Virus record (IMG/VR): IMGVR_UViG_3300042270_000314
Direction: 5' to 3' (one strand)
Source of the DNA: a virus
Taxonomy: Duplodnaviria; Heunggongvirae; Uroviricota; Caudoviricetes
DNA length: 64,000 bases
Below are positions 1 to 64,000 of the stretch, piece by piece; position 1 is the stretch's first letter, and each line of letters starts with the position of its first letter. Both the position numbers and the translations under genes were made by a program. Below the pieces are notes generated by a model. The model saw nothing but the letters and a program-made list of their open reading frames with translations, was not told where the DNA came from and did not search any database.

Positions 1-416
1 CGGATTTCCCTTTTTTGTTTTTGTGTGATTTTGATATCATCAGGGAAGAAAGAACCTCTAGAATAATAATGAGAAATAGCTAATAGTCTTTGCTCAAAAA
101 GAGAAAATGGAACATTAGGAAAATTCTCATAAAACACCCTAGCATTTTGAATAAGTTTCTTTGAAGTGATAGTTTCAAGAGCAGTTTGAAGATTATCAAA
201 AATCTGAGCAATTTGATAATCATCCATAGACATTAGATCATCAAACATCTGACGAGAGGGAATATAACCATATTCCATCATCATAGATGCAAATGTATGA
301 GCTACTTGAAAATCTGTTGGATTATAAAGATATGTTCGTTTTTGAGTGCGAAGATTTGTGATTGCAGGGCAAACTACCATTTTGTATTTAATAGCAGAAA
401 GAAATAGATCAGACAT
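1..416 (-). CDS. hypothetical protein (5'-partial at window edge; start ATG at 414-416)
   Basis: Open minus-strand frame running off the left edge; hand translation MSDLFLSAIKYKMVVCPAITNL...; no recognisable motif. Confidence 0.35.
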   Translation of the reverse strand, partial: MSDLFLSAIKYKMVVCPAITNLRTQKRTYLYNPTDFQVAHTFASMMMEYGYIPSRQMFDDLMSMDDYQIAQIFDNLQTALETITSKKLIQNARVFYENFPNVPFSLFEQRLLAISHYYSRGSFFPDDIKITQKQKREI

Positions 417-475
417 TTTTACCTCACAAAATTAAGAATGGAAATTGGGTAAAGTATTTTTTATTTCATAATTAA

Positions 476-651
476 TTAGAAGGAACTTTACCCATAGCCA
501 TATAAAATGTAGGAAAGCAGCAAAACTATTTTTATGTAGTGATCCTTAATAAGAAGGAAGTTTTACTATAGCCTACTGACATTAGGAAATTGAATTTACT
601 ATTTACAAATTAACGGTTTGTTCCTTTGGGAGGAAGTAAATTCATAGCCTA
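476..651. repeat. three direct repeats (~35 bp, ~70 bp period) of consensus aGGAAGt-ttaCyaTAGCC upstream of the 1..416 gene
   Basis: Copies at 476-512 (tagaaggaactttacccatagcc...), 548-585 (taagaaggaagttttactatagcc...) and 617-651 (tgggaggaagtaaattcatagcc...), all in the intergenic region. Confidence 0.5.
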
Positions 652-877
652 AAATTTAAAGATAAATTTCAATTTCACCTGGGTCATTAAGAACTACACA
701 TTCAATAGAATCATTTTCTTCCATGTTTTCAAGAGCTTTTTCATATGAATAATAGGGGAAACTCTCTGTTTCAGTTCTAACAATCCACATAGTGATCATT
801 TTTATTTTCCTGGTTTATTGTTTGTTGATAAATTATTTATAAGTTAGGTCAAAGAACATGTAAACAAATTATTTTTG

Positions 878-950
878 AGCGGTTAGTCGGAATTGAACCG
901 ACATCTCCAGTTTGGAAGACTGAGATAATAACCATTATATGATAACCGCT
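878..950 (-). tRNA. tRNA-Gly (anticodon UCC)
   Basis: Hand-folded cloverleaf from the reverse complement: acceptor AGCGGTT/AACCGCT, T-arm GTCGG-TTCAATT-CCGAC, anticodon loop CTTCCAA. Confidence 0.6.
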
Positions 951-952
951 TT

Positions 953-1027
953 TGGTCAGAGTGGGAAGAATCGAACTTCCACTACGTGCGTCCAAGGCAC
1001 GGATGCAACCACTACATTACACTCTGA
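953..1027 (-). tRNA. tRNA-Gln (anticodon UUG), CCA encoded
   Basis: Acceptor TCAGAGT/ACTCTGA, anticodon stem CGTGC/GCACG with loop CTTGGAC, T-arm GGAAG-TTCGATT-CTTCC. Confidence 0.65.
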
Positions 1028-1046
1028 TTGACCATCCATAAAAATT

Positions 1047-1124
1047 TGGTACCCCCGGTAGGATTCGAACCTACACTGTTCAGCTTCTAAGGCTGCTGTC
1101 TCCTTCCAGTTGGACTACAAGGGT
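1047..1124 (-). tRNA. class-I tRNA with anticodon UAG (would read CUA/Leu) but a short variable arm; CCA encoded
   Basis: Acceptor ACCCTTG/CGGGGGT (two G-U pairs), T-arm GTAGG-TTCGAAT-CCTAC, anticodon stem CAGC/GCTG with loop CTTAGAA; identity uncertain. Confidence 0.5.
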
Positions 1125-1128
1125 AAAT

Positions 1129-1204
1129 TGGTGTATCTAGTCAGGGTCGAACTGACATAATCCGGATTGAAAGTCCGGTGCACTAACCATTATGCTATAG
1201 ATAC
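1129..1204 (-). tRNA. tRNA-Glu (anticodon UUC), CCA encoded
   Basis: Acceptor GTATCTA/TAGATAC, anticodon stem CCGGA/TCCGG with loop CTTTCAA, T-arm CAGTTCGACCCTG. Confidence 0.65.
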
Positions 1205-1206
1205 AT

Positions 1207-1281
1207 TGGAGCCTCCACACGGAACTGACCCGTGAACTAGGGGTTACAAATCCCTCGTTTTTCCAGTTAAACTATAGAGGC
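1207..1281 (-). tRNA. tRNA-Thr (anticodon UGU), atypical T-loop
   Basis: Acceptor GCCTCTA/TGGAGGC, anticodon stem AGGG/CCCT (A-C mismatch at 31-39) with loop TTTGTAA, T-arm CACGG-GTCAGTT-CCGTG. Confidence 0.45.
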
Positions 1282-1287
1282 GTAATA

Positions 1288-1345
1288 AGTAGAAAATACT
1301 GGCCTACGTCCAGTAGCGTTTTAGACTTCCACCGCTTATATTTCT
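1288..1345. other. tRNA-like or hairpin element (terminal 7-bp stem GTAGAAA/TTTCTAC around CTGG-CCTACGT-CCAG); too short for a canonical tRNA
   Basis: Perfect terminal inverted repeat plus an internal hairpin, directly abutting the tRNA cluster. Confidence 0.3.
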
Positions 1346-1565
1346 ACTAGATTTGTGTTTTTCTTCTATATACCTCGTATTCTTTTAAATACTTATTCAT
1401 ATACCTTTTGACTTGTGTATGGGAACAATTTCATAATTTGGAAACTTTATCTACCCAACCATATTTCGTCAAATCTATTCCAGATTTATCTAATAGTTCT
1501 CTTCTTTCGATTATTAAATTATTATTAAAGTTCCCTAATTTTAGAACTGTAGCTTTATCATGTAT

Positions 1566-2342
1566 TCATGTTATTGTGTGTTTTAAAATTTTTATTTTTT
1601 CTTTTTTGATATTTCTATTTCTATGAACGTCAGATTCAACACAACTATTTAAATCTATTCCCAATCTTTCTAATTGTTTCTTTTGTAAAATGCGTATTTT
1701 TTTATCTCTATTATATTGTATAACGTACTTCATTTTCTCTTTATCTGAATTCATGAATCATCCTTTAACTTCATGGTATTCATCCAAATCAGGTAAATAA
1801 AAATCTGGAAAGTAGTGTCTTTCTATTTTATTAAAATATTTTAATATGTATTTTCTTGAATGGACCCACTTTATATTTTGTTTATTAAGATATTCTGCAT
1901 ACTTAAACTCCCATGTACCTTGTACATTAACATAATCTTCTATATAGGGACAATATATTTTATAATATTTTGTTTTAACAAATCCAGAATTTGAAGATTC
2001 TTCTAGATTTTTTATTCTACCTTTTGAAATAGATTCTCTATGTTCTTTAGAGAGGTGTTTTCCTTTTAGTGGGTGTTTTATTTCTCCCGCATTATATCTT
2101 TTTATATATGTTTCTGCACCTTTAGCAACTCTTTCATCTGTTTCTTTTGTTAAACCCTTATTTCATTCTCTTTTTCCATCAAGTTGAGAATAACTTCTTT
2201 TGCCTTCTCTGTGTTCTCTTTTTAACGAGATTGATTTCTTTTTTCTATAATTAGGACATTGTGAAAATTTTTTTGAGCAACATCATTTTCCATTTTTAAA
2301 TTTATATTTAGCTTCTTGGCCGCACCCATATTCACATTTCAT
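1566..2342 (-). CDS. homing-endonuclease-like protein: N-terminal Cys zinc finger, NUMOD3-like motif (KGKHLSKEHRESISKG) and C-terminal nuclease-like region; 3 in-frame TGA
   Basis: Track ORF 1566..1754 extends upstream through TGA codons to ATG 2340-2342 (MKCEYGCGQEAKYKFKNGKW*CCSKKFSQCPNYRKK...EYHEVKGW*FMNSDKEK...); no TAA/TAG over 258 codons. Confidence 0.5.
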
Positions 2343-2421
2343 AATAGATATATTCTCCTTTGTTTGAACCTAAATATCTATTTATATTTTTAAAAAAGTA
2401 AATTGCGTTTCAACTAAAATG

Positions 2422-2508
2422 TGGCCCCGGTAGGGTTCGAACCTACACGCAGTTTTTTCCTGCCGAAAATTTTGAGTTTTCGTTGTCTTCCTATTCCAGC
2501 ACGAGGCC
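2422..2508 (-). tRNA. tRNA-Leu (anticodon CAA), class II with long variable arm
   Basis: Acceptor GGCCTCG/CGGGGCC, anticodon stem CGAAAA/TTTTCG with loop CTCAAAA, variable stem GCAG/CTGC, T-arm GTAGG-TTCGAAC-CCTAC. Confidence 0.65.
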
Positions 2509-2551
2509 ATATCTACTTCTTATCAAGGATTAACCATGTTGTAAACAAAAA

Positions 2552-2758
2552 CTATTCTCCAACTTCTTCACAGAATGGAATCTGTTCCCATTCAATTGCT
2601 GAAATATCTTCAGCCCTTACTGAGCAATTCTCAAACTGTAAAATCTTTGCTTTACCAGAATACCAATTATCATAAAGTTCAAAATATGTATCTTCATCAT
2701 ATTCTGCAGTAAGAATGTAACCATTTTTGAGATAAAGATCAACAGTATTCTTAGACAT
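2552..2758 (-). CDS. hypothetical small protein (likely starts at the MSKNTVDLY methionine, preceded by AGGAGA)
   Basis: Track ORF 2552..2788; internal ATG with a good RBS, so the start was adjusted. Confidence 0.4.
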   Translation of the reverse strand: MSKNTVDLYLKNGYILTAEYDEDTYFELYDNWYSGKAKILQFENCSVRAEDISAIEWEQIPFCEEVGE

Positions 2759-2797
2759 TATACTCTCCTTTAAACAGATTGTAAACAAAAAACTTTT

Positions 2798-2873
2798 TGG
2801 TGGAGCCAGGGAGACTTGAACTCCTAACCCCCTGCGTGCAAGGCAGGTGCTCTCCCAGTTGAGCTATGGCCCC
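2798..2873 (-). tRNA. tRNA-Ala (anticodon UGC), G3:U70 present, CCA encoded
   Basis: GGGGCCATAGCTCAACTGGGAGAGCACCTGCCTTGCACGCAGG...: canonical D-arm, anticodon loop CTTGCAC, acceptor GGGGCCA/TGGCTCC. Confidence 0.8.
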
Positions 2874-2880
2874 ATGTTTT

Positions 2881-2954
2881 TGCTCCGGGAGTAGGGGTTG
2901 AACCTACGACCGAGCGGTTAACAGCCGCTTGCTCTGCCACTGAGCTATCCCGGA
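2881..2954 (-). tRNA. tRNA-Asn (anticodon GUU)
   Basis: TCCGGGATAGCTCAGTGGCAGAGCAAGCGGCTGTTAACCGCT...: anticodon stem AGCGG/CCGCT with loop CTGTTAA, T-arm GTAGG-TTCAACC-CCTAC. Confidence 0.8.
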
Positions 2955-7991: not shown

Positions 7992-9989
7992 TTATACTTT
8001 AGCAAAAGTTCTTCGTGGAAACTCCCATTCTCTTCTTACTTTATTCATAGAAGAAACTGGAACAAAAAATCCGACAACTCTGCTAAACTTATCAATAATT
8101 TCTCCATTACAAATGGGACATATTTCTAAATCCCCAAAACTCATATGCCCATTTTCACATTTACTATAGATAGAATTTAATGCAAAATGCTCACATCCAG
8201 ATTTTACTGCGTAGTTAATTATCTCCTTGGCTTGTGTTTTTGTTATTTTTTCGCCCAACTGTGCATGTACTAAAGACCCACCAGTAATCAATTTATTATA
8301 TTTACCATCAATATCAAGTTTTTCCCAAACAGTTGCATCTTCCCACAATGGTAAAAATTGATTAGCATATAGTTTACATGGAACAAGCTCTTCGCCAAAA
8401 AGTAATTTATCTACATTACATAGTCTTACTGCATATGATTCACCAGGGATTTGTTCAATGTTGAATACATAACCCTCACCATTTGTAGAAAATTCTTTAG
8501 ACTTCTTATTTAGATGTATTAAAGATTGTTCTATAATATCATACTCTATATTAAATTTTCTCTCCATTGTTTTTTGACATTCTACTAATCCCATAATTCC
8601 AAATGTAGAAAAGAGCCTTTTTACATTTATCCACCCATTAGATATAAACTTTTGTAGGCCCTTGTTAGCCAACATTACAATAAGAGTTTTATGGGCTTTC
8701 AAAATATCCCTACTATCTTCAATTCTTTGGTTATATATCTTCCAAAAATCTTCAACAGATTTGGCTTCCAATGCAATGCGATTAAAGTTGATTGTTGCAA
8801 CTCTATGAGAACCTAAAGAAGATAGCGCGCCAGATCCAAAAGAGTTTGATTGCGTTCCCATATCAAATAATTCATTATCATTTACAAGGCGGCAACAACT
8901 GGCTATTTTTGTTCCCTCAGATAGAAAAATATTATATCTAAAAATATCCCTAGACGTAACATTTTCAAGAAAATCAACATCTTTAATCTTTTCATCATCT
9001 TTACTAAAATTTAATGTAATAACTGGGAATCTATATGGAGTACCATTGTTTAATGGATCTCCTTTATCAAAGAAATCAAGAAAGATGTTTTGAATCTCAT
9101 ATATATAATCTGTCATATATGAATAAAAATCATCTTTACTCCCTTCCCAAGTATCAGGAATAGGAAACATCCATTCAACTTCTTGTGAGACAAAATATTT
9201 CAATTTAACTTTATCAAAAATTGAAATATTCGTAAATGGACTTTCTGAAGAATTCCTTGAAAGGTGGTTTACAGAATGTACAAATTGTTGAAACTCATTT
9301 TCAAAATGTTTTCTACATTTGGGGTCATATAAGTTTTCAATTTTTAAATCCATATTATAGTATGCAAGTTTAGATACACATAGAAAAAAATCCCCAATAG
9401 CGCACGCGCCAGCCAAATTTGTAGCAAAATTATGTACTGTCTCACATAGTGCAGAAATGTATGAACTAATTCTTTTTGCAGGGCCTGATGGTAATTGTCC
9501 AAATTCTCTACCGATAGTTAATAACTTACTTGAATCCATTGCCCAGCAATAGGGAAGAAGAATGTTTGTAGAATCAGATAGACCAATAGAATAATCATAC
9601 ATATTAGAAGCAAGACGTTTTGCTCGAGCCTTGCCATACATTTCTTTCATTGTTCTATATAGATAATCAAATCCCACAACCTTTTTAATTGGTGCTATTG
9701 CTTCAGCATAAATACCAGCAATTGTTTTTTCATTTTTGTTAGAGTTATCATCAATAGAAACATCATTTAGTTGTTCGGAAATAACCTTTTCAATTACATG
9801 AATGAAATTAAAATGGTTAAAATCAATGCCATTTTTCTCAAGAATTTTCTCAGTAACTTCGTTATATCAATCATTATCTTTATCTGGAAACTTACGTTTG
9901 ATATTTGCCTTAAGTCCTTTAGCAATTTGTTTAATTGTTACTGTAGTATCTGCTTCGTTATAAAATGTTTGAGAAAAATTAAATTCCAT
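7992..9989 (-). CDS. nrdD: anaerobic ribonucleoside-triphosphate reductase NrdD (class III RNR); 1 in-frame TGA
   Basis: Track ORF 7992..9677 extends upstream through TGA to ATG 9987-9989 (MEFNFSQTFYNEADTTV...DKDNDW*YNEV...); C-terminal Zn ribbon CPICNG and glycyl-radical region SRVVGFFVPVSS. Confidence 0.85.
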
Positions 9990-10003: not shown

Positions 10004-10522
10004 TTAGTTAAAATATAAAATACCGTCTTGGGTAAGACATTTAAAATCACTGTTGTAAATTTTTTGATTTTTACTTGCTAACTGAAAATAATCATCTGTC
10101 TTTAGAGATTGTTGTTTTTGTGTATGATCAAATCTCCCTGTTTTTAAAAATTTAAAATTTTCAATTCTATTATATCTGACATATTCAACATCGTACCCAG
10201 TATAAATACAATAATCATATTTGGTATATGTTCTGTTTAATAATTCTTTAACAAATTCTCTATTTTTATAAAATAATGGATCACCACCTAAAAGAGTAAT
10301 TTTATTTGTTCTATATCGTTTTGTTTCTATGGAAATTATATTTATCAATTCAGATAATGTAAATATCTTTCCATATAAAGGATCTTGAAGTTCTTTATTT
10401 TGACACTGTGGACAAATCCCATCGCATCCAGCAAAATATAATGACAAACAAATATCCTCTTTAGAAGGATAATCTAAAAAACTTCCTTGAATAATTTCAC
10501 TAATATTAACTTTTAAGTCCAA
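10004..10522 (-). CDS. nrdG: anaerobic RNR activating protein NrdG (radical SAM)
   Basis: Cys-cluster motif YFAGCDGICPQC and radical-SAM-like layout, immediately upstream of nrdD. Confidence 0.75.
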   Translation of the reverse strand: MDLKVNISEIIQGSFLDYPSKEDICLSLYFAGCDGICPQCQNKELQDPLYGKIFTLSELINIISIETKRYRTNKITLLGGDPLFYKNREFVKELLNRTYTKYDYCIYTGYDVEYVRYNRIENFKFLKTGRFDHTQKQQSLKTDDYFQLASKNQKIYNSDFKCLTQDGILYFN

Positions 10523-10548
10523 TTTAAATGTTCCTTAAATATAATTTA

Positions 10549-11058
10549 TTAATTTGTTTTTGTATATGAAATCTGATTTATAGACCCTCTATTAATATTT
10601 CTACTATATTTGTATCCTGAATCTATCATAATAAATTTAAATACTTGAGTATTATTTAATAGTCTTTCAATACAATTCATTTTATTAAAGAAAATAAACT
10701 GAATTTCTTTTACCTTTTTTTCTTTTAATAGCATTCTTAATGAAGTTAAAAATCCATAATAATACTCAAATAGCTGCTCTTTAGTAAGATTCTTTATGTT
10801 ATTGTATTCATTTTCATTATGAAAAGAAATTTTCCAAATATTCCCTTCTTCAATATATGCAATAAAATTAAACTGCTTAGAACCTATTGTAAACAAAGTA
10901 CAAAAATCATAGATAGGGGAATCCTCTTTAACTACTTCCAATGTTGGAAATGTTGTAGAAAATTCTTGATCAATATCTGAGAATGAATTAGATAACTGGA
11001 GAAAACGCTCAAACTCTGTTAATGAAAATAGTCCCATTAATACCTCTCTTAATTTCAA
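10549..11058 (-). CDS. hypothetical protein (169 aa)
   Basis: Track ORF in the nrd operon block. Confidence 0.4.
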   Translation of the reverse strand: MKLREVLMGLFSLTEFERFLQLSNSFSDIDQEFSTTFPTLEVVKEDSPIYDFCTLFTIGSKQFNFIAYIEEGNIWKISFHNENEYNNIKNLTKEQLFEYYYGFLTSLRMLLKEKKVKEIQFIFFNKMNCIERLLNNTQVFKFIMIDSGYKYSRNINRGSINQISYTKTN

Positions 11059-11061
11059 TTT

Positions 11062-52769: not shown

Positions 52770-52797
52770 GCCACTTATCTATTGTAAATAAAATTCT

Positions 52798-53655: not shown

Positions 53656-53658
53656 AAA

Positions 53659-53892
53659 CTACTCCTTTGATTTAAGTTTTCTAACAATAGGTAAAATCTT
53701 CTTCATAATGATAAAAGCAATCATAATTGGGGATACAGCAATTGTAAACACCCCAAGGAAAAAAAGTTCAGTGTTTGCAGCCGAAATTAGATAGGGCGCA
53801 GCATACCCAAACGAAAAAGCAAACACACACAAAAGAATAGCCCCCCATACATACAACTTAACATAGTCATTCATAATTATCCTCATTACCAA
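53659..53892 (-). CDS. small 2-TM membrane protein (possible NfeD-like partner of the SPFH protein)
   Basis: Two hydrophobic helices; immediately upstream of the SPFH gene. Confidence 0.4.
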   Translation of the reverse strand: MVMRIIMNDYVKLYVWGAILLCVFAFSFGYAAPYLISAANTELFFLGVFTIAVSPIMIAFIIMKKILPIVRKLKSKE

Positions 53893-54281
53893 TCAAAATT
53901 AAAGTTGGAATATCCATGTTCTAATACCTCTTCCTTCAATTTGTCAATATCAATATCAAGATCGTAATCTTCTACACGTTCAACCAAATTTACTAAATTA
54001 ACTGTTTCATGTCTCTCGTAGTTGAAATCGTCATAGTAGTTTATATTATTACTTTCTAATTCTTTGTAATGAATAATCCACTCAGATTTAGGAAACATAT
54101 CTTCATTGTTACGAAACATATCCCATCTCTCATTAATAGGAATGCTTTTGTTTTTAATATATACGGAAATATAATCAAAAATTTCTTTCTGCTTTAATTT
54201 TAACTTTTTAATTTCCTCGTAGAGTTCATCAATGTTATCAATGGTCATTCTAGATTTCCCTCCATCGCCATTTATTAGCAA
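53886..54281 (-). CDS. hypothetical protein (131 aa)
   Basis: Track ORF. Confidence 0.4.
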   Translation of the reverse strand: MLINGDGGKSRMTIDNIDELYEEIKKLKLKQKEIFDYISVYIKNKSIPINERWDMFRNNEDMFPKSEWIIHYKELESNNINYYDDFNYERHETVNLVNLVERVEDYDLDIDIDKLKEEVLEHGYSNFNFDW

Positions 54282-54440
54282 TTTCTAAAAAGTTATCATC
54301 ATATTCATACTGGAAAGACCATTCAGGGCCATACATTTCAAACATTCTTTTTCGGGATTCATCAAAAGACCCTTCAATCACAACATAACAATTTGCGTGT
54401 TTTTGACCACAACCAAAAGTAAATGCATACTTACTCATTT

Positions 54441-54893
54441 TTACATCTCCATTACAATAGATTTCACAAGATTTCCATCTACATTGCCATTAAAGTGTTT
54501 TGTAACAACACCAATAGCTTGCATCTTATTCTTAAACTGAGAAAAGTCAACTGTTTTTAGAAAATTTCTAATTTCTTCTTCTGTTGCCATTTGAGGTAGA
54601 ATTGATTCACAAAGTTCAATAAAATCATATGCTTCTGTGAGTTTTGGATTTGGTGTGTCTAGCCCAATTCCCTGTATAGGGTTCTGAATAAGATTTGGGA
54701 TAGTTACTTCCTTAACAGATTTAACAATATTCTTGATAATCTTAATAGCTTCTTCGTCAGTAACAGTTTTTTCTTTGTTCTTGGATGCTGTCTGAAACTG
54801 GCCAATTAGGAATTTAATATTATCCTTACGAATTGAATTACCAGCCTTTAGAGCCTCAATCATAGCTTTCTGTAGTTGTTCCTGAATTGTCAT
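54441..54893 (-). CDS. GatB/YqeY-domain protein
   Basis: MTIQEQLQKAMIEALKAGNSIRKDNIKFLIGQ...EEEIRNFLKT...AIGVVTKHFNGNVDGNLVKSIVMEM matches the YqeY family pattern. Confidence 0.5.
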   Translation of the reverse strand: MTIQEQLQKAMIEALKAGNSIRKDNIKFLIGQFQTASKNKEKTVTDEEAIKIIKNIVKSVKEVTIPNLIQNPIQGIGLDTPNPKLTEAYDFIELCESILPQMATEEEIRNFLKTVDFSQFKNKMQAIGVVTKHFNGNVDGNLVKSIVMEM

Positions 54894-55156
54894 TTTACTT
54901 TTCCACCTTTTTATAAATGTTTAAAAACTCTTTAATTTCCATTGTTTCATTTTGAAACATTCTATGTTTTCCTAAAGGATGCATAGCATATAAAACCCAT
55001 CCATCTTTCACATCTTTAATTGTTACAAATCTATATTCGTCTACAAAGAAAGGATTTCCATCACCATATGACAAATAAAATAAATCATCTTTCTTAATAA
55101 ACGGATCAGAAGTTTGTTTTGTTTTAAAAATCTTCTTTAAAAAATGTAAACATCTA

Positions 55157-55408
55157 TCAACTCCAATTAAAAATACAATTTAGAAGTGATTGTTTTTCTT
55201 CAAAATAAGGACATTTGTTTAATAGATTGTCGGAATATGGATTACAATATCTTGGTGTTGTTATAACTTCGAGAGGAGTATCTCTCTGTTTATATTCTTT
55301 TATCCTTTTACATCTAGCTTCAGCCATTCGAGGTCCATCTACCGGAATCCAATCAATATATCGGCAATCTTTACAGAAGACTTTCATTACCACCACCAAC
55401 TTTGCCAA
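55157..55408 (-). CDS. Cys-rich small protein (83 aa)
   Basis: Track ORF with several CxxC pairs. Confidence 0.35.
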   Translation of the reverse strand: MAKLVVVMKVFCKDCRYIDWIPVDGPRMAEARCKRIKEYKQRDTPLEVITTPRYCNPYSDNLLNKCPYFEEKQSLLNCIFNWS

Positions 55409-55920
55409 TACTTGTTAATGTAATTTAAAAGCATATTCATATCTTCTTTCTTATGTTGTTCAACAAGTTTATGTATATTCAAAAATTGTTGGGTTTCAAT
55501 TTTTTCATCTTCAGGAGTCTTTACATTTTCTCGATGTGTTTTAAAAAATCCGTTTTCTACAGAACAATCGAGGGTTCCCCATTTCTTATCATGAAACATA
55601 AATCCATTTTCATGATACCACCAATCATCTTTCTGTCTTCTACAAATTTCTTTACAAATTTTTAATCTTTTAATGTGTTTTTCACAACCACAAACATACT
55701 TGCTTCCTCTCTTGAATGATTCAATCATCAAATCAAATTTCTTTTCCCAAATAGGAAACATATACGAATAATCCCAGCTTCTATCTTTCCAGATAATAGG
55801 GAACCAAATGATAAGATTTTTAATACCATATTTGATATCATAATAGAAGTTCTGGATTTTCTTCCAAATCCACACAATATCATCAATCTTATCTTCTAAA
55901 AATTCTTTCATGCTATTCAC
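55387..55920 (-). CDS. hypothetical protein (177 aa, Trp-rich)
   Basis: Track ORF. Confidence 0.4.
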   Translation of the reverse strand: MNSMKEFLEDKIDDIVWIWKKIQNFYYDIKYGIKNLIIWFPIIWKDRSWDYSYMFPIWEKKFDLMIESFKRGSKYVCGCEKHIKRLKICKEICRRQKDDWWYHENGFMFHDKKWGTLDCSVENGFFKTHRENVKTPEDEKIETQQFLNIHKLVEQHKKEDMNMLLNYINKYWQSWWW

Positions 55921-55922
55921 CT

Positions 55923-56330
55923 TTATAGAAGGATATTATCAAAAATATCTTCAAGATCAGCAAAACGATATTTAATTATTTGATCGTTTTTAATAACCAC
56001 ATCAGCTAGGGACAGTAGTCTATAATAAGAAGTCGATGATACAACATCACTACGTTTATGATTAAGCCATATTTCTTCATCAATATAAAATGTAATTCTA
56101 TTCCATAACTGCTCACTAGGTTTATAAAATTTTTTACTAATTTTAATATACTTGTTTTTATTTTTGTTGGGATTCAATTTCATACTTTTGTTTTCTTTAA
56201 TAAGCTCATTATTATGTTCTCTTAAATGATTAATAAGATCAACTATTTGAGTTGTTTTCAGTGAGGTGATAGACTTTGATAGAAACAAATCTGTGTATTC
56301 TTTAATTAAATCAAGGTCTGGATAAGACAT
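55923..56330 (-). CDS. hypothetical protein (135 aa)
   Basis: Track ORF. Confidence 0.4.
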   Translation of the reverse strand: MSYPDLDLIKEYTDLFLSKSITSLKTTQIVDLINHLREHNNELIKENKSMKLNPNKNKNKYIKISKKFYKPSEQLWNRITFYIDEEIWLNHKRSDVVSSTSYYRLLSLADVVIKNDQIIKYRFADLEDIFDNILL

Positions 56331-56346
56331 AATAATCCCCCTGTTT

Positions 56347-56568
56347 TTATCGTTCCAGAATTACAAAATGACCAAAATGACTATCAAACACAGTAACTAG
56401 ATGTTCATAATCACCATTCATCATATCACTAATCAGTTCTTCGATTTCTTCTTTTGAATATGAAAGATGTTTAGCAAAACTTTTTGCATAACCTAATAGG
56501 CAAAAGGCATTACCTTCAGGACCAGTCAAATCAATAATCATTTCTTTGTTCTGTTTTTCTCTGATCAT
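56347..56568 (-). CDS. hypothetical protein (start moved to the internal Met because the track start overlaps tRNA-Met)
   Basis: Track ORF 56347..56619 overlaps the tRNA at 56590-56663. Confidence 0.35.
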   Translation of the reverse strand: MIREKQNKEMIIDLTGPEGNAFCLLGYAKSFAKHLSYSKEEIEELISDMMNGDYEHLVTVFDSHFGHFVILER

Positions 56569-56589
56569 AATGTTTTCCTTTGAAGATTG

Positions 56590-56663
56590 TACCCCTACCA
56601 AGATTTGAACTTGGGACATTCCGGTTATGAGCCGGGGGTTCTAACCAACTGAACTATAGGGGT
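56590..56663 (-). tRNA. tRNA-Met (anticodon CAU; elongator or Ile2-type)
   Basis: ACCCCTATAGTTCAGTTGGTTAGAAC...CCGGCTCATAACCGG...GTTCAAATCTTGGTAGGGGTA; A1-U72 paired, so not an initiator. Confidence 0.65.
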
Positions 56664-56666
56664 AAA

Positions 56667-56744
56667 TGGTGACCCTGACAAGAATCGAACTTGTGACATC
56701 GAACTTAGAAGGATCGTACTCTATTCCAACTGAGTTACAGGGCC
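56667..56744 (-). tRNA. tRNA-Arg (anticodon UCU), CCA encoded
   Basis: GGCCCTGTAACTCAGTTGGAATAGAGT...CGATCCTTCTAAGTTCG...ACAAGTTCGATTCTTGTCAGGGTCACCA; one U-U mismatch in the anticodon stem. Confidence 0.55.
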
Positions 56745-56750
56745 ATGTTG

Positions 56751-57107
56751 TTAATAAGTTAATTTTAATTTAGGTTTAACCTTTTGTAAATAAAAATCTT
56801 TTATAGATTGATTCTTAATTGTTTCAGGCCAAAACCAAATATCAAATCCATATTTTTCAATTTGTGTAATGACTCTTGAAACGTGTTTGGCACTTAATGA
56901 ATCATTACCTTTTTTCCAAGGAATTTCAAAGTCAGTAATTAAACTATAGTCAACTCTACCAAAGTCATTAATATACCAAACATCAAATGTTTTAGATGTA
57001 TCAGACAAATCTCTAAAAGTTAAAAAATATAATAGCTTTTTATCTCTAAAAACAAGGAAGACGGAATTTAGAGTAAAAAGACCGTCTTCCTTGTCAACTT
57101 TAAACAT
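56751..57107 (-). CDS. hypothetical protein (start moved to MFKVDKED..., avoiding the overlap)
   Basis: The track ORF 56751..57296 N-terminus overlaps the better-looking ORF 57100..57483 in another frame. Confidence 0.35.
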   Translation of the reverse strand: MFKVDKEDGLFTLNSVFLVFRDKKLLYFLTFRDLSDTSKTFDVWYINDFGRVDYSLITDFEIPWKKGNDSLSAKHVSRVITQIEKYGFDIWFWPETIKNQSIKDFYLQKVKPKLKLTY

Positions 57108-57483
57108 CGAGAGGTACTTCCTTATAGATAACATACTTATGGGTAAAATTATTGAGCTTATAAAACTTCTTTGCGCGTTTACAAAACTTAACAAATTGTT
57201 TTTCAAGAGAAGATGGAATAGGCATCTTCGAACCAAATTCATAATCAAAAGGCCTTTCAGCGGCAATAGACACTGCATCATCCTTTGTAAATACATCTTT
57301 CTTATTACAAAGACTCCAACCTACTATAATCTTGCATTCTCCATTAAGATCGCAAAATGTTTTTGCATAGAGACACCCATAAGGAGTTCCCTTTTCTCTA
57401 TAAGGAGTAGCAATTCCCTCTTCATCATAATCAAATCCAACAATTCTACCCTTTTTACGAACATATTCAATAAGATGTGACAT
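57100..57483 (-). CDS. hypothetical protein (127 aa)
   Basis: Track ORF. Confidence 0.4.
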   Translation of the reverse strand: MSHLIEYVRKKGRIVGFDYDEEGIATPYREKGTPYGCLYAKTFCDLNGECKIIVGWSLCNKKDVFTKDDAVSIAAERPFDYEFGSKMPIPSSLEKQFVKFCKRAKKFYKLNNFTHKYVIYKEVPLDV

Positions 57484-57484
57484 T

Positions 57485-57676
57485 TTAAACTCCTTCTGTA
57501 TATTGTTTGAATAATTCTTTTTCTAATTTGTGAATTTCATATTGTAAACACCTAAATTTAGTTAATTCTTGTTCATGTTCAATCTCCCTGATAAGGTTAA
57601 TGTATTTTATTTTAAGAGAAAGATTGGGAGAGCTGGATTCTTCCAGGGCAGATTCAAGGTCTGCTATGACGTCCAT
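57485..57676 (-). CDS. hypothetical small coiled-coil protein (63 aa)
   Basis: Track ORF. Confidence 0.35.
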   Translation of the reverse strand: MDVIADLESALEESSSPNLSLKIKYINLIREIEHEQELTKFRCLQYEIHKLEKELFKQYTEGV

Positions 57677-57701
57677 ACGTTCATCTCTCCCAAAATTTTA
57701 T

Positions 57702-58526
57702 TTACATAGGAAGGGCATACATATCCATAGCAAGTCTTTCATACTTGCGATATGCATTTCCAAAAATGTTAGAAGTATCTTCGCGGCGAGTAGAAGTCTG
57801 GTGAGTCATGATTTCAGTGATAGCATTGAATGCACCAAATCGGGTTTCATCATGTTTTTCACGATTCATCACTTCTTCATAAGTTACAAGGATTCTTTCC
57901 TTCATCTTGTCATTATTGACATAATCACGAGAATCAAGGAAAACTTCCATATCATTCATGGTATGAGGGATCTTCGTCCACTTCTGCCAAATCGGGATAA
58001 TTTCTTCGCCAATGGACTTAGCACCAATTTCAAATGTGGATCGAATTGTTTCGAGCTGATCTGAGTTGTGAGTGAAATTTAATCCAAAGAGATTCTTTTT
58101 ACCAAAAACCATTCCATTGGAACAGATGCTCCTGAAAAGGCTGAGATTATATCCATATCGGATGGTTGTATTAAATCCGTTATAAATTTCAAGCATAACA
58201 TGGGAAATATCGCCATTAGCAACTTCGAAAGTCAGTTCATCATCTTCGAAGACGATTCGACGAACCCAAGTTTCCCCACCCTTCTTAATGAAATCCATGG
58301 TCTGCTTAACCTTGTACTTCGAGAAGGCTTCTCCAAAAAGCTCGTTGACTTCATTATTAGTAATAACCTTATAATCCTTACCAACCATACCCACAGGGCG
58401 TCCGGTTTCAGTATTGATAAGAACATCCTTTGCCAACTGAATTTCCTTGTTCCCATACTTTGCAAAAACAGGGGTACGTTCTACTTCAAAGAAGGGATTG
58501 AAAGTGGTAGTAGCGGGAGTAGCCAT
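57702..58526 (-). CDS. hypothetical protein (274 aa) expressed from the duplicated promoter/leader
   Basis: Track ORF; upstream 58530-58615 is the reverse-complement copy of the 26341-26423 promoter/leader/RBS. Confidence 0.45.
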   Translation of the reverse strand: MATPATTTFNPFFEVERTPVFAKYGNKEIQLAKDVLINTETGRPVGMVGKDYKVITNNEVNELFGEAFSKYKVKQTMDFIKKGGETWVRRIVFEDDELTFEVANGDISHVMLEIYNGFNTTIRYGYNLSLFRSICSNGMVFGKKNLFGLNFTHNSDQLETIRSTFEIGAKSIGEEIIPIWQKWTKIPHTMNDMEVFLDSRDYVNNDKMKERILVTYEEVMNREKHDETRFGAFNAITEIMTHQTSTRREDTSNIFGNAYRKYERLAMDMYALPM

Positions 58527-58587
58527 TTTTAATCTCCTGTGTTATTTGTTGTTGTGTTGAGATTAGAATATAAAATTTTTGAAAGTT

Positions 58588-58615
58588 TGTAAACAGTTTT
58601 TTTAAACTTTCATAA
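58588..58615 (-). promoter_or_regulatory. sigma70/T4-early-like promoter (GTTTACA-N16-TATATT) with conserved leader; copy of 26354-26381
   Basis: ctGTTTACAaactttcaaaaattttaTATTCTaatctcaacacaacaacaaataacacaggagattaaaaATG on the minus strand. Confidence 0.5.
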
Positions 58616-58877
58616 AATTTTCTACTTCTTCGCGAACATCAGGAGGGAAGGCATTGAAGAAAATTCGAATTTCATCGGTATCTTCAATTCCAAAAAATTC
58701 CCGGATGGCATTTACAATTTCAAAGGGGGTCATGTCAGGATTTTTCTTCTTGAGGGACTTGTAGATTTTGCGAAGGGCAGATTTTAATGTATTACAAACA
58801 TACTGACGGGTAGTTCCGAGTTCCTGGGCAATTTGTTCACCGTCCATGGGTTCGACTTTTTCAAAATAAGAATTCAT
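58602..58877 (-). CDS. small DNA-binding protein with sigma-70 region-4-like HTH
   Basis: GEQIAQELGTTRQYVCNTLKSALRKI. Confidence 0.4.
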   Translation of the reverse strand: MNSYFEKVEPMDGEQIAQELGTTRQYVCNTLKSALRKIYKSLKKKNPDMTPFEIVNAIREFFGIEDTDEIRIFFNAFPPDVREEVENFMKV

Positions 58878-58941
58878 TTGATTTCTCCATTGTTATTGTG
58901 TTGATAAAAAGAACTTAACAAAAACTTTCGACAATGTAAAC

Positions 58942-59310
58942 TTATTTTTTAATTTTTCTAAAACTAGGGCAACGAATGATTTTTGCCAGGGCAGACTGCT
59001 TACAGTCACCCTCACAGCGAAGACACTTTTCATTATATCCAGATTCGAAGAAAGAAGTCTCATCGAATTCAATGTTTTCTTCCTGAACTTTCGTTTCTTC
59101 TTTGGACTTCCTTCTTCTCTTTCCAGGTACAGGAATTTCAGAAACTTCAATAACCCTGAGGGTTCCAAGATTTTCATTTTTCAACTTTTCAATAAGCCTT
59201 AAAGCAGGAGCTTCATTCTTCCAAAGACAACATCTTTTAGAATCATCCACAAATTTGAATGTGTAAGCATTTGCAAGTCGTTCATTGTTATCATTAATAA
59301 TAGCAAACAT
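58942..59310 (-). CDS. hypothetical protein (122 aa); first gene downstream of the 59395-59730 repeat module
   Basis: Track ORF. Confidence 0.4.
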   Translation of the reverse strand: MFAIINDNNERLANAYTFKFVDDSKRCCLWKNEAPALRLIEKLKNENLGTLRVIEVSEIPVPGKRRRKSKEETKVQEENIEFDETSFFESGYNEKCLRCEGDCKQSALAKIIRCPSFRKIKK

Positions 59311-59794: not shown

Positions 59795-60781
59795 CTATTC
59801 AGTTGGCTTGAATAAATCTTCAAGTATCTTTTTACACATTGTCAATTTTAAATGATCTGGGATAGAAATTTTATCAAGGTAAGTCAAGAATAATTGTTTC
59901 TCATCTAATGTTGAAAATTCCTCAGTAGGAATATCCATTTTGACATCTTCAATTTCAATTCTTGAATAATCAACATCAACTTGTAAAGGTTCTAGGGATT
60001 TGATTTTTGTCAAGAAATCTAAAATATCCATTTCTGAATATTCTTTTGTGAAATAAATTTTAACAATGTTCCCTTTAATTAGGGTTTCATCAAGATTCAT
60101 GTCAAAAACATGAATAAATTTTGGTGCATCAATAAATTCAACAAATTCCAATTCTAATGTTTCATCATCAAAAATATGGAACCCTCTTTTTGCATTAATA
60201 TCATTAAAATTATGCCCATACATATTGCCAATATAAATGATGTTATCTTTTTGGGATTGAGTATGATAATGACCTGATAGAACAATTTCATAATCCTTAA
60301 AAGAAGAAATTTCTTCTCCATGAAATGATGTTGTGTTATCATTCATCTTAAAATCTTTAATATCAAAATGCCCCATTAGAATTTTGGTATTTAAAGATTT
60401 GTACTCATTTGATCATGGGCAAAGCCCAATCTTATCATAAATAACAGTTGGTTCATTTACAATCTTAATATTATCATACTTATCAATAGTTTGAAGTGAA
60501 TTAAGTTCATTTGTATGCTTAAAATAAGCATCATGATTTCCACAAATAATATAGGTGGAAAAATCATTCAACATTTCACAAATTATCCTAGCAGAATCAA
60601 TAGCCTTAACAGATAATTCTTTCTTGTCATGATAAAAATCACCAAGAAAAATTATTGATTTAATGTTTCTTCTTCTTGATTCTGTGGTTAAAAAATCCAC
60701 AGCTTTAATTGGAAGTTTTTCTCATACTTCATTATTAATGTTTAGACCCACATGAAGGTCTGTAAAAAGAGCATGTTTCAT
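59795..60781 (-). CDS. gp47: recombination endonuclease subunit gp47 (Mre11/SbcD-like metallophosphoesterase), 328 aa, 2 in-frame TGA
   Basis: Track ORFs 59795..60376 and 60413..60700 plus an upstream extension share a frame (MKHALFTDLHVGLNINNEVW*EKL...IIFLGDFYHDKK...IICGNHDAYF...LMGHFDIKDF...VLSGHYH). Confidence 0.75.
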
Positions 60782-60783
60782 TA

Positions 60784-61269
60784 TTCTTTATCCTCACATA
60801 TTTCTAAATTACAATTGTTCAAATTAGGTGTCTCTTCATCTATTTCAAAAACTTCAATTTCACAATAATATGAATAGTTGATAGCACTCATAGAATCGTC
60901 TTCTTGAATGATTTCTTTAAGATCAAATAATCTTTTCTTTGTTTTGGATTTTTTCTTTTCATTGCCTATAAATGCGATAAATGCATTTCAAGCAATCTGA
61001 GTGATGTAAGCGAATGGATTATTAGATTTTTCTAAATCAAAATTTCTGAGACCTTTGATGATTGCTACATGAGCATCTGACTTCATATCTTCCAAATATG
61101 TGTAACCATTAAAGTTTGGTCTATGAGAAAGACCATTTACAATCTGAATAATATATTTCCCTAAAGTATCAGAAAAGACATTGGTGCTCTTAAGCTTTTC
61201 AATCTCAATAATAAGATCTTTATTCTTTACATAATAATTACATTTAGTTTCCTTTGTTTTAGGTTCCAT
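60784..61269 (-). CDS. gp55: late-transcription sigma factor gp55, ~162 aa, 1 in-frame TGA
   Basis: MEPKTKETKCNYYVKNKDLI...HVAIIKGLRNFDLEKSNNPFAYITQIAW*NAFIAFIGNEKKK matches T4 gp55 (MSETKPKYNYVNNKELL...[34 protein letters not shown]); its stop overlaps the gp47 start. Confidence 0.75.
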
Positions 61270-61338
61270 AATAAAAAATACCCCCATTTCAAATTTATAT
61301 AAATTTAAAACAGGGGAATTAAATTGTAAACAATACAA

Positions 61339-61748
61339 TTAATCTTTTTTGTGTAATTCATATTCATCACATATCATCTCTAACAACTTCTTCAGATTTA
61401 ATGATTCACTATTATCTTCTTTTATATTTTCTTTTAATTTACAGACATCATGTGCATTAAAATTATCTACTATTTTATTTAGAAGAGCTATTTGTTCTTT
61501 CTGTTTTGAGCTAATATCATCTGTAGTTGTAACAACACCTATAAATTTATCTACAATTTTTAAAAATTCTTCGTGTTGTTCTTGTATTTTTTCCATATGT
61601 AAATTTAGTTTTTTAGAAGTTTCTTTTAATTCTTTAATATCTTGTTCAACCAAATCTTCTAATTTAAAATATCTATTGTAAATTCTAACTAGAAAAAATA
61701 TGGCTGCTAATAATAAAATGGATATTGTTTTTCAAACCTCTATACTAA
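61339..61748 (-). CDS. membrane-anchored coiled-coil protein (136 aa, 1 in-frame TGA)
   Basis: Track ORF 61339..61653 extended upstream through TGA to ATG 61748 (MVELFLSLPFSIEVW*KTISILLLAAIFFLV...). Confidence 0.4.
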
Positions 61749-61807
61749 ATGGCAAACTTAAAAATAATTCTACCATATCGTTCTCCTTATTATTTACACA
61801 TCACCTC

Positions 61808-62113
61808 CTATTTTAAAACATCAACCCGTATTAAGAAGGAATTGTTTTCATTAAGTTCTTTCTTATGAACTATGATCCTTGATCTATGTGGAACTTTTAA
61901 AATTATTGACTTCCCGAATTCATTATTAATGTATATTTCATCAACATTTTCAAAAGTTTTATCTAATAATACATCCTCCAGGTTGACTTCCTCTGACTTA
62001 TAAAACAGCATATTAGTTATAAACAAAATACCTATGATGATTGCTGAAATATAATGAAGATTAGATAATATTTTATGTAAAAATAATCCTATCTTCCCTT
62101 TAATATACTGCAT
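61808..62113 (-). CDS. small membrane protein (101 aa)
   Basis: Track ORF with a hydrophobic helix. Confidence 0.4.
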   Translation of the reverse strand: MQYIKGKIGLFLHKILSNLHYISAIIIGILFITNMLFYKSEEVNLEDVLLDKTFENVDEIYINNEFGKSIILKVPHRSRIIVHKKELNENNSFLIRVDVLK

Positions 62114-63155
62114 AAGACCCGTCTACCTCTTCAATTATTTTACTATATATTCAACCGAAGTTAAGTTCCTCAAGTCTTTTAATATTTATTGAAAATTTAG
62201 TTTGAGAGCTCAAAATTTTAGATTCTCAATTATTATTTAATAATGCTTCTTGAAATAATATTGCTGTATCTGACCCCATTTTATAAAAATCTGGTGAAAT
62301 TGTCATAGCTATCCCCTTTTGTGAATAATAAAAATTTTCACATAGTTCTAAATGTTTTCTATTATATTTAAACATATCATCTAAAACTGATTTTTTGGAT
62401 TTTACAACATTATAATCAGTATCTGTTAATGTTTGAAAAGCATATATTATTACACCAAGTTTTTCTCTTTGCAATTTATTTAATGTTTCTCTTAATCCTG
62501 AAATTGTATTTATAACTATTACATTAACATCAAATGAGGTATTCTTTTTAATCTGTTCTTTATATTGATCAGCTAGAAAAAAAGAAGTTGTGCTGGAATC
62601 TGATAATATTCAAAACTTCGATGGATAAACTTCTATTTTCGAAAGCATTTTAAAAAATTTATCTAAAGTAATATATTCTTCTATACCACTATATTTTGAT
62701 ATTTCTATATTATCTGAATTAACATAATCTAAAATAGGTTTATTAATCCCGGTAAAAAATATTTTATGAGTTTTAGAAAAAGGTATTCCTATGTTCTTAA
62801 ATGCAGTATCATCAACAGTAAAGATATAATCTGGGGCGAATGCTTTAATATCCCATATAACTTTTTTTGATATGTATTCTATTTCTTCTGGTGTTGTAAA
62901 AGTCAAACCAGTTTTCATGTATCATACTTGAATATCAAATTGATAATCATTCTTTCATTTTGTCAACTGTGAAATTATGCCTTGTGTTTGTGGGCTTCCA
63001 CAAACATGGTCAATATCATATGAATTAACTATAGCAATTTTTAATACTGGTAATAAAAGACTCTTATTCAAATTCGATGTTGATACTGGTTTAGTAATCA
63101 ACAAAAGATCTAACGTAAAAATTAAAGTTATAAATAACAATTTCCACAGCCGCAT
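62100..63155 (-). CDS. putative secreted protein (~351 aa) with N-terminal signal peptide; 4 in-frame TGA
   Basis: Track ORFs 62955..63155, 62610..62918 and 62226..62474 share one frame joined by TGA; MRLWKLLFITLIFTLDLLLITKPVSTS signal-like N-terminus. Confidence 0.4.
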
Positions 63156-63165
63156 AGCAAATCCT

Positions 63166-63635
63166 CTTTATCTTCTTTTGAAAATTTGAGCAATTTTCAT
63201 TCTAAGTTTTTTACTGAAATCTTTGGCCCAATTGCCCACAATAACCTTTTCTATTTTTTCAATAGTATCTAAATGTTCCATTTTTGACATATAATAAGGG
63301 GGCTTCCAAAAATATCTTCTAATTCCAAATGCAATATAAGGGTATTTTCTTTTTATTAATTGTCATGTGAAATTTAAATTTTTTGATTTTGAATAATTCT
63401 TAATCCAATCATCTACAAATTTTCTTCTGTCCTGTCTAGGGATATATGTCAGGTTAATGCCCTGTATATAGTGATGCTCATGATTTGACTTGGGATGTAT
63501 TCCTGAAATTTTGTTAATAAAAAGAATATGAGGTCTAGGATCATGAGCGAATCCAGTGTAATTGAATGTATAGAATTCACCAGATCTCATTGTAATATTG
63601 CCATGTTTATGGGTAAGCGATATTTTAATTGCCAT
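63166..63635 (-). CDS. hypothetical protein (~156 aa, 1 in-frame TGA)
   Basis: Track ORF 63363..63635 extended downstream through TGA to TAA ~63166. Confidence 0.35.
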
Positions 63636-63650
63636 AGTTTTGTTCCTTTA

Positions 63651-64000
63651 TCATTGTTCTTTACAAGTACTTAGAAATCCATAATTACAATTATTACTAT
63701 GTATCATATTATGACAGGTTCTACATACACTAATACAATTATCTACATCCGCGCTTTCAACTGGATTATTCTTTATTGGATCTATATGGTGGCAGCATAA
63801 ATGAACATTTCCCAATTCTTCTTTTGTTTTTCCACATATTTGACATGTATAATTGTCTCTTTCAAAAACAATCTGTTTTATTTCATTCTGTATATTTAAT
63901 TGGGCATATGGTTCATGTCCCAATGTATATTTTCTTTTTCCAAATGTTGGGCATACTTCTTTACAATTATCGCTACAATAAAAATATCCTTTGCCAACAT
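63651..64000 (-). CDS. HNH endonuclease (5'-partial; frame continues past the window end)
   Basis: CQICGKT...LCCHHIDPIKNNP...CISVCRTCHNMIH HNH motif; upstream frame stays open to position 64000. Confidence 0.6.
   Translation of the reverse strand, partial: VGKGYFYCSDNCKEVCPTFGKRKYTLGHEPYAQLNIQNEIKQIVFERDNYTCQICGKTKEELGNVHLCCHHIDPIKNNPVESADVDNCISVCRTCHNMIHSNNCNYGFLSTCKEQ

Follow-up and report, generated by a model that had tools for sequence, protein, structure and literature searches.

Predicted UGA-to-tryptophan recoding, used block by block, in the genome of an uncultured T4-like myovirus

The 64,000-nucleotide stretch of viral DNA held in IMG/VR as record IMGVR_UViG_3300042270_000314 (hereafter the window, at its full length) falls apart into gene fragments when read with the standard genetic code, which raises the question of what TGA means in this phage, how it is read, and in what kind of host. 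Pfam matches stored for the same DNA, together with tblastn comparisons with T4 and pelagiphage HTVC008M, place the window in an uncultured, deep-branching myovirus related to T4, of which it is a fragment; an earlier reading of the letters alone (the sequence-only reading) had already called it a T4-like myovirus. The T4 core found in the window comprises terL, a gp24-like vertex protein, gp20, gp21, gp22, gp23, gp18, gp19, gp15, gp13, uvsW, uvsX, gp46, gp47, gp55 and nrdD/nrdG; gp32 and gp43 were likewise identified in this phage, so that the membership set of the T4 core is present. A megablast search of 20 kb against cultured phages returned no close DNA relative, and the best cultured capsid match was HTVC008M (37.6% identity). 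GC content, previously put at ~28%, is 30.6% in the window. JGI metagenomes 3300042258-3300042281 contain identical DNA, with these genes on contigs of 137.5 kb, 110 kb and 89 kb, and so do the Logan assemblies of SRR351749xx and SRR351836xx; literature searches on the sample and run accessions gave no match. Joining overlapping contigs of the same phage gave a composite of 111,686 bp spanning window positions -42,376 to +69,310, and walks through further same-phage loci reached ~-52.4 kb on the left (L008, L076, L081, L089, L095, L101 and L103) and ~+77.5 kb on the right (L068 and L108). With genome size estimated at ~163.5 kb from a 164,754-bp relative (IMGVR_UViG_3300028601_000019), ~130 kb (80%) of the genome was read, ~66 kb of it outside the window, and the remainder amounts to ~34 kb, placed roughly between window +77 kb and -52 kb around the circle (about 48-132 kb on the contig of the relative).

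Reading frames and the meaning of TGA

Greedy gene calling under code 4 gave 90 genes covering 90.3% of the window, compared with 113 genes and 74.9% under code 11, and treating TAG as sense brought no comparable gain (78.4%). Across the 111.7-kb composite, coding rose from 80.7% with the standard code to 91.5% with TGA as sense, and all 171 genes ended in TAA or TAG, none in TGA. Within the window, 103 TGA codons stand in frame and not a single TAA or TAG. Frames of 650-1401 codons contain TGA yet neither of the other two stops, and the composition-based probability of 1401 codons free of TAA and TAG is ~1e-36, in line with the sequence-only reading, which had judged such frames (650-1400 codons) essentially impossible by chance. 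The shattering of genes that it described under the standard code is also seen in public annotations: JGI standard-code calls for the same DNA are fragments, while Logan calls are full-length proteins, for example a 646-residue sheath. The in-frame TGAs it had quoted from the tail sheath (...GQGKVV[TGA]GQKTLLDKQSAFNRINVRRLF..., at 29646-29648) and from the prohead protease gp21 (...LIEDLV[TGA]EGNHV..., at 23192-23194, opposite Trp in T4) are present as described, as are those in terL, portal, nrdD, uvsX, uvsW, gp13, gp47 and gp55, and in-frame homology runs on past every TGA tested.

The amino acid was identified from alignments. Opposite TGA, T4 and HTVC008M carry Trp in 11, Phe in 7, Tyr in 4 and Gly in 1 of 38 cases, an aromatic profile matched by that of TGG codons in the same comparison. 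For a closer comparison we used relatives from the same capsid clade, for which an IMG/VR scan with the capsid protein returned 46 loci. In standard-code members of this clade, 151 of the 208 cells opposite TGA hold TGG and ~8 hold a Gly codon; in recoded members, 63 hold TGA and 17 hold TGG. The code-4-like assignment proposed from the letters alone therefore stands, with TGA aligned to Trp rather than to Gly, gaps or protein ends and with homology continuing downstream. A glycine reading of TGA (code 25, known from phages that infect Absconditabacteria and Gracilibacteria) produces exactly the same open reading frames (ORFs) as code 4, so the large rise in coding density cannot tell the two apart; the alignments, however, in which Gly so rarely faces TGA while GGA and GGT codons face Gly in ~55% of cells against T4 and HTVC008M, lead us to reject it as practically excluded. 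An equally negligible probability attaches to the absence of any recoding, that is, to genuine stops in decayed genes, assembly errors, selenocysteine or occasional programmed readthrough: standard-code calls do give fragments, but homology is unbroken across all tested TGAs, TGA positions are kept in independent assemblies and in relatives (the 63 TGA-to-TGA cells), the same TGA is retained in two TnpB copies with 95.7% protein identity, no gene ends in TGA, and scans gave no match to a selenocysteine insertion sequence (SECIS)-like element or tRNA-Sec. Based on these alignments and frames, UGA almost certainly specifies tryptophan, and never termination, in this phage.

Uneven use of TGA along the genome

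TGA had been described as Trp "throughout" the window and as present in "nearly every conserved gene", and here the sequence-only reading went too far. TGA use is block-wise and non-uniform, a result in which we have high confidence: TGA occurs in 39 of 88 genes in the window (32 of 59 among genes of at least 100 residues) and in 63 of 171 genes in the composite, an overall range of 37-43%. The window's Trp codons comprise 183 TGG and 103 TGA, and genes as central as gp23, gp22, gp46 and nrdG are TGA-free, along with whole blocks at ~10004-15064 and 48654-59310. In genome order, Trp codons form 119 runs, compared with 192.6 +/- 9.0 in shuffles (runs test, z ~-8), and the longest TGG-only run, of 48 codons at 49049-59223, was equalled in none of 20000 shuffles. 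TGA makes up 0.073 (15/205) of Trp codons in early-type blocks, namely the gp47-gp46 accessory region, the Acb3/Tad3 region and ~40 kb to the left of the window, vs 0.51 (124/242) elsewhere; the limits of these blocks were set after data inspection, and the unbiased statistic here is the runs test. The ~40 kb on the left carries gp43 (0 TGA:11 TGG), a beta-glucosyltransferase, DenV, RNA-repair genes and Gad2. Because the A-ending fraction of NNR codon pairs (0.73 in early-type blocks vs 0.77) and GC content at third codon positions (GC3; 0.237 vs 0.204) are nearly equal in the two sets, the depletion is specific to TGA and not compositional.

TGA use also differs with promoter context. Genes directly behind the T4 late-promoter motif TATAAATA, which include terL, vertex, scaffold, capsid, sheath, gp13, the endolysin and several endonucleases, have 49 TGA:45 TGG, compared with 108:299 in all others (p = 3.6e-6). 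Homing endonucleases are the TGA-richest genes (TGA:TGG 9:0 and 10:1). Two genes, at 55154-55387 (-) and at composite positions 63648-64757, end in TGA followed immediately by TAA or TAG and would end at nearly the same point under either code, although such ends show no excess over chance.

Across the capsid clade, coding density marks as recoded the group to which the window belongs, with capsid identities of 89-91% and 71%, and no fewer than three others. A neighbour-joining capsid tree interleaves standard-code and recoded lineages, and since standard-code lineages branch among recoded ones, TGA recoding is either recurrent or long-standing in this clade. DenV avoids TGA in this phage (TGA:TGG 0:8) and also in a relative with a GC content of 23% (0:7), whose neighbouring genes are TGA-only. 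The polymerase gp43, a single ORF of 851 residues without TGA in the window phage, is represented in relative L078 (8335-10923) by two adjacent ORFs (573 and 288 residues) meeting at ...KIEEVI/stop/MVDFIKY..., with TGA.

How, and in which host, UGA could be read

The sequence-only reading had listed ten tRNAs, none able to read UGA. Ten are indeed present and none has a UCA anticodon, although the second (953-1026) is Pro-UGG and not Gln-UUG. The odd UAG-anticodon tRNA (1047-1124, minus strand) is 78 nt long, belongs to class I with a short variable loop, and has its CCA end encoded. In bacteria, tRNAs for Leu normally belong to class II. A reassignment of CUN codons was considered on account of this tRNA and rejected, since CTN codons align to Leu as usual, and no second reassignment thus follows from it.

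We lean somewhat towards a UGA-to-Trp switch imposed by the phage on a host with the standard code, where the host code and the timing are what we infer. The phage would infect a standard-code, peptidoglycan-walled, probably Gram-negative bacterium and first express code-neutral early genes; it would then change the decoding of UGA in the cell to Trp and thereby gate all downstream genes. Early-type and accessory genes, along with some core genes (gp43, gp46 and gp23), use TGG only and, having no TGA, read correctly under either code. TGA is found in genes for recombination and replication, in gp55, in virion and lysis-cassette genes and, most of all, in homing endonucleases. UGA decoding would have to be under way before late transcription, since the late sigma factor gp55 itself contains TGA. 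The distribution of TGA among genes fits phage-imposed recoding, as modelled in the literature, better than it fits a native code-4 host. In that model, early genes are compatible with both codes, lysis, structural and intron endonuclease genes are preferentially recoded, and TGA stops are lost beforehand; homing endonucleases are favoured for recoding in Agate phages too (our sources for alternatively coded phages being Borges et al., bioRxiv 10.1101/2021.08.26.457843, and Cook et al. 2024, PMC11210395). Alternatively coded phages of standard-code hosts are reported to have 26-71% of genes recoded, and phages adapted to recoded hosts ~90%; the 37-43% found here lies inside the former range and far under the latter. 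The anti-defence families Acb3, Tad3 and Gad2 were also counted toward a phage-imposed switch, as were the Shine-Dalgarno motifs found upstream of most genes.

Several observations weigh against a phage-imposed switch. Scans with ARAGORN (default, intron-aware and relaxed) and Rfam found no UCA-anticodon tRNA in the ~130 kb read, which took in both tRNA clusters and the ~50 kb early region and yielded only the window's ten tRNAs; relaxed ARAGORN added only low-scoring false positives within coding genes, none with UCA, and the tRNA clusters of the 164,754-bp relative also lack UCA. A detectable Sup-TCA tRNA is, however, reported in only 15-35% of code-4 phages. Neither a full-length release factor nor a tryptophanyl-tRNA synthetase was seen in the same ~130 kb, and the base following TGA shows no avoidance of strong release factor 2 (RF2) contexts relative to TGG (p = 0.10). 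TGA also occurs in gp32, uvsX, uvsW, gp47, nrdD and gp55, which are needed early or in mid-infection, so the switch cannot be purely late. The assignment of genes to early and late classes draws on analogy with T4 and on the TATAAATA motif, which overall is not enriched (44 sites vs 41 expected). Finally, the near-total use of TGA in some relatives (48 TGA:2 TGG in L059, and TGA even in gp43 of L078) looks like full adaptation to a code-4 environment.

The rival reading is a host for which UGA is a Trp codon by nature, with a phage that adopts the host's code and needs no suppressor, the TGA-poor genes being recent imports from, or recombinants with, standard-code relatives. We consider such a host unlikely, at clearly longer odds than a phage-imposed switch. 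In its favour are the lack of a UCA tRNA over ~80% of the genome, the lack of a context bias after TGA, and the several related lineages that are almost wholly recoded. Code 4 has moreover been reported in walled, free-living Minisyncoccia and Eggerthellaceae, so that code-4 hosts are not confined to Mollicutes, and contigs of the clade were binned into metagenome-assembled genomes (MAGs) of Candidatus Shapirobacteria and Candidatus Izimaplasma. However, recent import is an improbable source for ~50 kb of early-type genes that are ten-fold depleted in TGA at the same A/G third-position bias and GC3, and the vertically inherited gp43 and DenV also avoid TGA. TGA is found in only 37-43% of genes, the endolysin belongs to a family of Gram-negative association while known free-living code-4 lineages are wall-less or monoderm, and the MAG associations look mis-binned, with contigs from standard-code subclades.

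One host clue is a lysis cassette left of the window, encoding a muramidase and a membrane protein. The endolysin combines GH108 and PG_binding_3 domains, both above Pfam cut-offs, and has a TGA:TGG ratio of 3:2, compared with 2:0 in the adjoining membrane protein. The same architecture is found in cultured phages of Acinetobacter, Vibrio, Bacteroidales, Pseudomonas and Escherichia, overwhelmingly Gram-negative hosts, and the host of this phage would thus probably be walled and Gram-negative. A phage of a wall-less, native code-4 Mollicute would need no peptidoglycan hydrolase and would be expected to use TGA in most genes and without positional structure. Such a host is disfavoured here by the GH108 endolysin, the use of Shine-Dalgarno motifs, the presence of TGA in a minority of genes, its strong clustering (z ~-8) and its exclusion from early-type blocks that share the same codon bias. 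Known code-4 lineages comprise Mycoplasmatales, tiny endosymbionts, two Eggerthellaceae genera and some Minisyncoccia, with no obvious match among them, although the host may belong to an unrecognised code-4 lineage. Of the two options that the sequence-only reading had offered, a suppressor tRNA elsewhere in the genome and a native code-4 host, the first has not surfaced in ~130 of ~163.5 kb and the second is disfavoured in its Mollicutes-like form.

Clade contigs are deposited in the MAGs of Candidatus Izimaplasma HR2 (L085, JRFF01000075.1) and Candidatus Shapirobacteria (L086, JBAZML010000002.1), and the Shapirobacteria MAG also includes 95-, 49- and 31-kb phage-like contigs with TnpB homologues. 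Host assignment from binning (to these two or to an archaeon) was rejected, the contigs lying in standard-code subclades, and the phage contigs are probably binning contaminants in public genomes.

Candidates for the decoder are a suppressor tRNA in the ~34-kb remainder, or loss of RF2 combined with near-cognate reading by tRNA-Trp(CCA). The latter, with RF2 disabled and no UCA tRNA in a walled standard-code host, is a speculative option to which we give a low probability; if true, the RF2-disabling switch would gate gp55 and, via gp55, all late transcription. The phage encodes a 116-residue stand-alone GGQ (RF-1 domain) protein, Pth2, RNA ligases 2 and 1, RlaP, a Cys-phosphatase and a CCA-adding enzyme, all TGA-free or nearly so. 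These translation-rescue and RNA-repair genes could matter for the code switch or as protection against anticodon nucleases, and under an RF2-disabling mechanism the GGQ protein and Pth2 could clear stalled ribosomes. As a recoding-specific factor the RF-1 domain protein was set aside: its family, phrog_3122, is a general phage one, it reaches none of the equivalog cut-offs, and it is kept as a candidate only. Adjoining the tRNA cluster is a TGA-free protein of 722 residues assigned to the MXAN_6230/SCO0854 RING-domain family (E = 3e-67, below the equivalog cut-off) and to phrog_33734.

L079 (IMGVR_UViG_3300035046_000064), a strongly recoded relative with a GC content of 23% and 46 TGA:21 TGG, also lacks a UCA tRNA. 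It carries a tRNA-Trp(CCA) with a U11-A24 pair in the D-stem (4840-4914) and an odd 93-nt class-II-like tRNA (6461-6553) whose anticodon loop reads CTGCAG(A). A U11-A24 D-stem pair is the configuration of the Hirsh UGA suppressor.

Feature map, significance and known systems

The features of the window and of adjoining same-phage loci are collected in Table 1.

Table 1. Genes, blocks and tRNAs of the phage (window positions unless a locus is named)
Feature	Position	Strand	Remarks
tRNA cluster	877..2954	-	Gly-UCC, Pro-UGG, UAG, Glu-UUC, Thr-UGU, Leu-CAA, Ala-UGC, Asn-GUU (ARAGORN, Rfam)
TGA-rich endonuclease gene	1347-2342		splits the tRNA cluster
nrdD (anaerobic ribonucleotide reductase)	7992..9989	-	1 TGA at 9867-9869; Pfam NRDD, Fer4_12
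nrdG	10004-10522	-	0 TGA
TGA-free block	10004..15064	-	0 TGA, ~19 TGG; nrdG, DUF5662, Tad3, Acb3, unassigned genes
DUF5662	11062-11580	-	in TGA-free block
Tad3 (anti-Thoeris)	11570-12178	-	TGA-free early-type region
Acb3 (anti-CBASS)	12178-12879	-	TGA-free early-type region
terL, two ORFs	15099..18568	-	15 in-frame TGA, some at Trp sites that are TGG in standard-code relatives
gp24-like vertex (Gp23 fold)	18654..19817	+	1 TGA at 19530-19532
Portal gp20	20356..21909	+	TGA 21565-21567: TGG in 25 relatives, TGA in 11
Prohead protease gp21	22877..23524	+	TGA opposite Trp of T4: TGG in 26 relatives, TGA in 11
TGA-free late genes	23533..26947	+	0 TGA, 10 TGG; gp22, gp23, small ORFs
Scaffold gp22	23831-24799	+	0 TGA
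Major capsid gp23	25031-26272	+	0 TGA
Tail sheath gp18	29268..31208	-	TGA 29787-29789, 29646-29648; 10 TGG
Tube gp19, gp15, neck/fibre genes, gp13	31272..37053	-	mostly 1-4 TGA each, mainly TGG in relatives
gp13	36250-37053	-	part of the preceding group
UvsW helicase	39493..40926	+	3 TGA, two opposite Trp in both T4 and HTVC008M
1401-codon ORF, phrog_18612	41246..45451	+	7 in-frame TGA, no TAA/TAG
Homing-endonuclease-like gene with YGEEEGTRRYNEW repeats	46043..47533	-	9 TGA, 0 TGG
UvsX recombinase	47592..48641	-	3 TGA
Largest TGA-free block (presumed early genes)	48654..59310	-	48 consecutive TGG Trp codons; also DUF7020, YqeY-like, DUF932, many small ORFs
gp46	49100-51127		in largest TGA-free block
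NADAR	51131-51625		in largest TGA-free block
Band_7 lipoprotein	52798-53655		in largest TGA-free block
tRNA-Met(CAU), tRNA-Arg(UCU)	56589..56744	-	within TGA-free accessory block (ARAGORN, Rfam)
gp47 and late sigma factor gp55	59795..61287	-	gp47: 2 TGA, one opposite Trp in T4/HTVC008M
gp55	within 59795..61287	-	1 TGA at 60988-60990
Gad2 (anti-Gabija)	L104 1429-2376		outside window; TGA-free early-type region
722-residue protein	L008 12957-15125 (window ~-1752 to 416)		0 TGA
Lysis cassette	L095 7021-8000 (window ~-25.7 to -24.8 kb)		muramidase and membrane protein
Beta-glucosyltransferase	L089 5737-6849		Pfam T4-Gluco-transf, E = 2e-21
Translation-rescue and RNA-repair genes	L089 15781-16131; L101 14044-14478; L089 11928-12875; L095 3471-4601; L089 16287-17306; window 4574-5905
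TnpB, first copy	L068 147-1184 (window ~+68.1 to +69.2 kb)		inverted relative to second copy
TnpB, second copy	L089 19301-20338 (window ~-22.9 to -21.7 kb)

In terL, an intein-like insert follows the Walker A motif (...RQSGK/CVSWDT...SHN/STTVG...), and a second Hint-like element is divided between the two ORFs: its start (CVPKYTKVC...) lies in the first ORF, where it forms an in-frame fusion with a GIY-YIG/NUMOD3 endonuclease, and its end (...TNGVISHN/CSMLLLDELAFV) opens the second. The terL of HTVC008M aligns without a break over the junction of the two ORFs, and judged by sequence the arrangement resembles a "fractured gene" with a split intein. An endonuclease-like family, very rich in TGA, has 8-12 tandem repeats of ~25 residues (YGEEEGTRRYNEW...) and a C-terminal nuclease-like domain, and is present in at least three copies (6587-7891, 46043-47533 and L008 16247-17641). 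TnpB (IS605 OrfB/Cas12f-like) occurs as two inverted copies in this lytic T4-like genome (88.8% DNA identity, sharing the in-frame TGA mentioned above), and as three copies in the 164-kb relative. Beside NADAR, the protein at 51609-52025 appears macro-domain-like by eye only. The T4-type beta-glucosyltransferase homologue adjoins further glycosyltransferase-like genes, a locus which suggests that the DNA may contain glucosylated hydroxymethyl-pyrimidines.

Recoding of TGA to Trp in phages is already known; what is added here is a T4-like lineage, with most of its genome devoid of a UGA-reading tRNA. No earlier report of a TGA-recoded T4-like lineage was found in the literature searched. Recoding thereby reaches the lineage with the best-understood phage developmental programme, and one in which recoded and unrecoded sisters can be compared. 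Since standard-code calling shatters the terminase, portal, sheath and recombination genes, surveys of T4-like markers and viral databases will mis-annotate the whole clade. With no UGA-reading tRNA in ~80% of the genome, and with gp32, uvsX and gp55 nevertheless dependent on UGA decoding, this phage is a sharp test case for how, and when, the code is switched by the majority of code-4 phages that lack a suppressor tRNA.

Among known systems, this phage resembles the code-4 Agate, Jade and crAss-like phages in its low GC content, its use of TGA for Trp, the loss of TGA as a terminator and the partial recoding of its genes, as well as in the preference for structural, lysis and homing-endonuclease genes, the mixed-code clade and a suppressor that often goes undetected. 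Unlike these phages, whose published recoded clades come from gut samples, it has a T4-type core (gp23, gp20, gp17, gp18, gp55, gp32 and gp43) and carries TGA in middle genes as well, including gp32, uvsX and gp55. With the phages of Mycoplasma and Spiroplasma, which natively use code 4, it shares TGA as Trp and the lack of a detected phage suppressor tRNA. None of those phages is T4-like, however, and their hosts are without peptidoglycan while this phage encodes a GH108 muramidase; contrary to what would be expected of such phages, only ~40% of its genes carry TGA, and these are clustered. The closest parallels in genome organization are T4 and HTVC008M, with which it shares the core gene set, local gene order, gp55 together with TATAAATA ahead of late genes, tRNA clusters in accessory regions, many homing endonucleases, RNA ligases 1 and 2, and a beta-glucosyltransferase. 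In T4 and HTVC008M, however, TGA is a stop and TGG the sole Trp codon, whereas here TGA would encode Trp as well.

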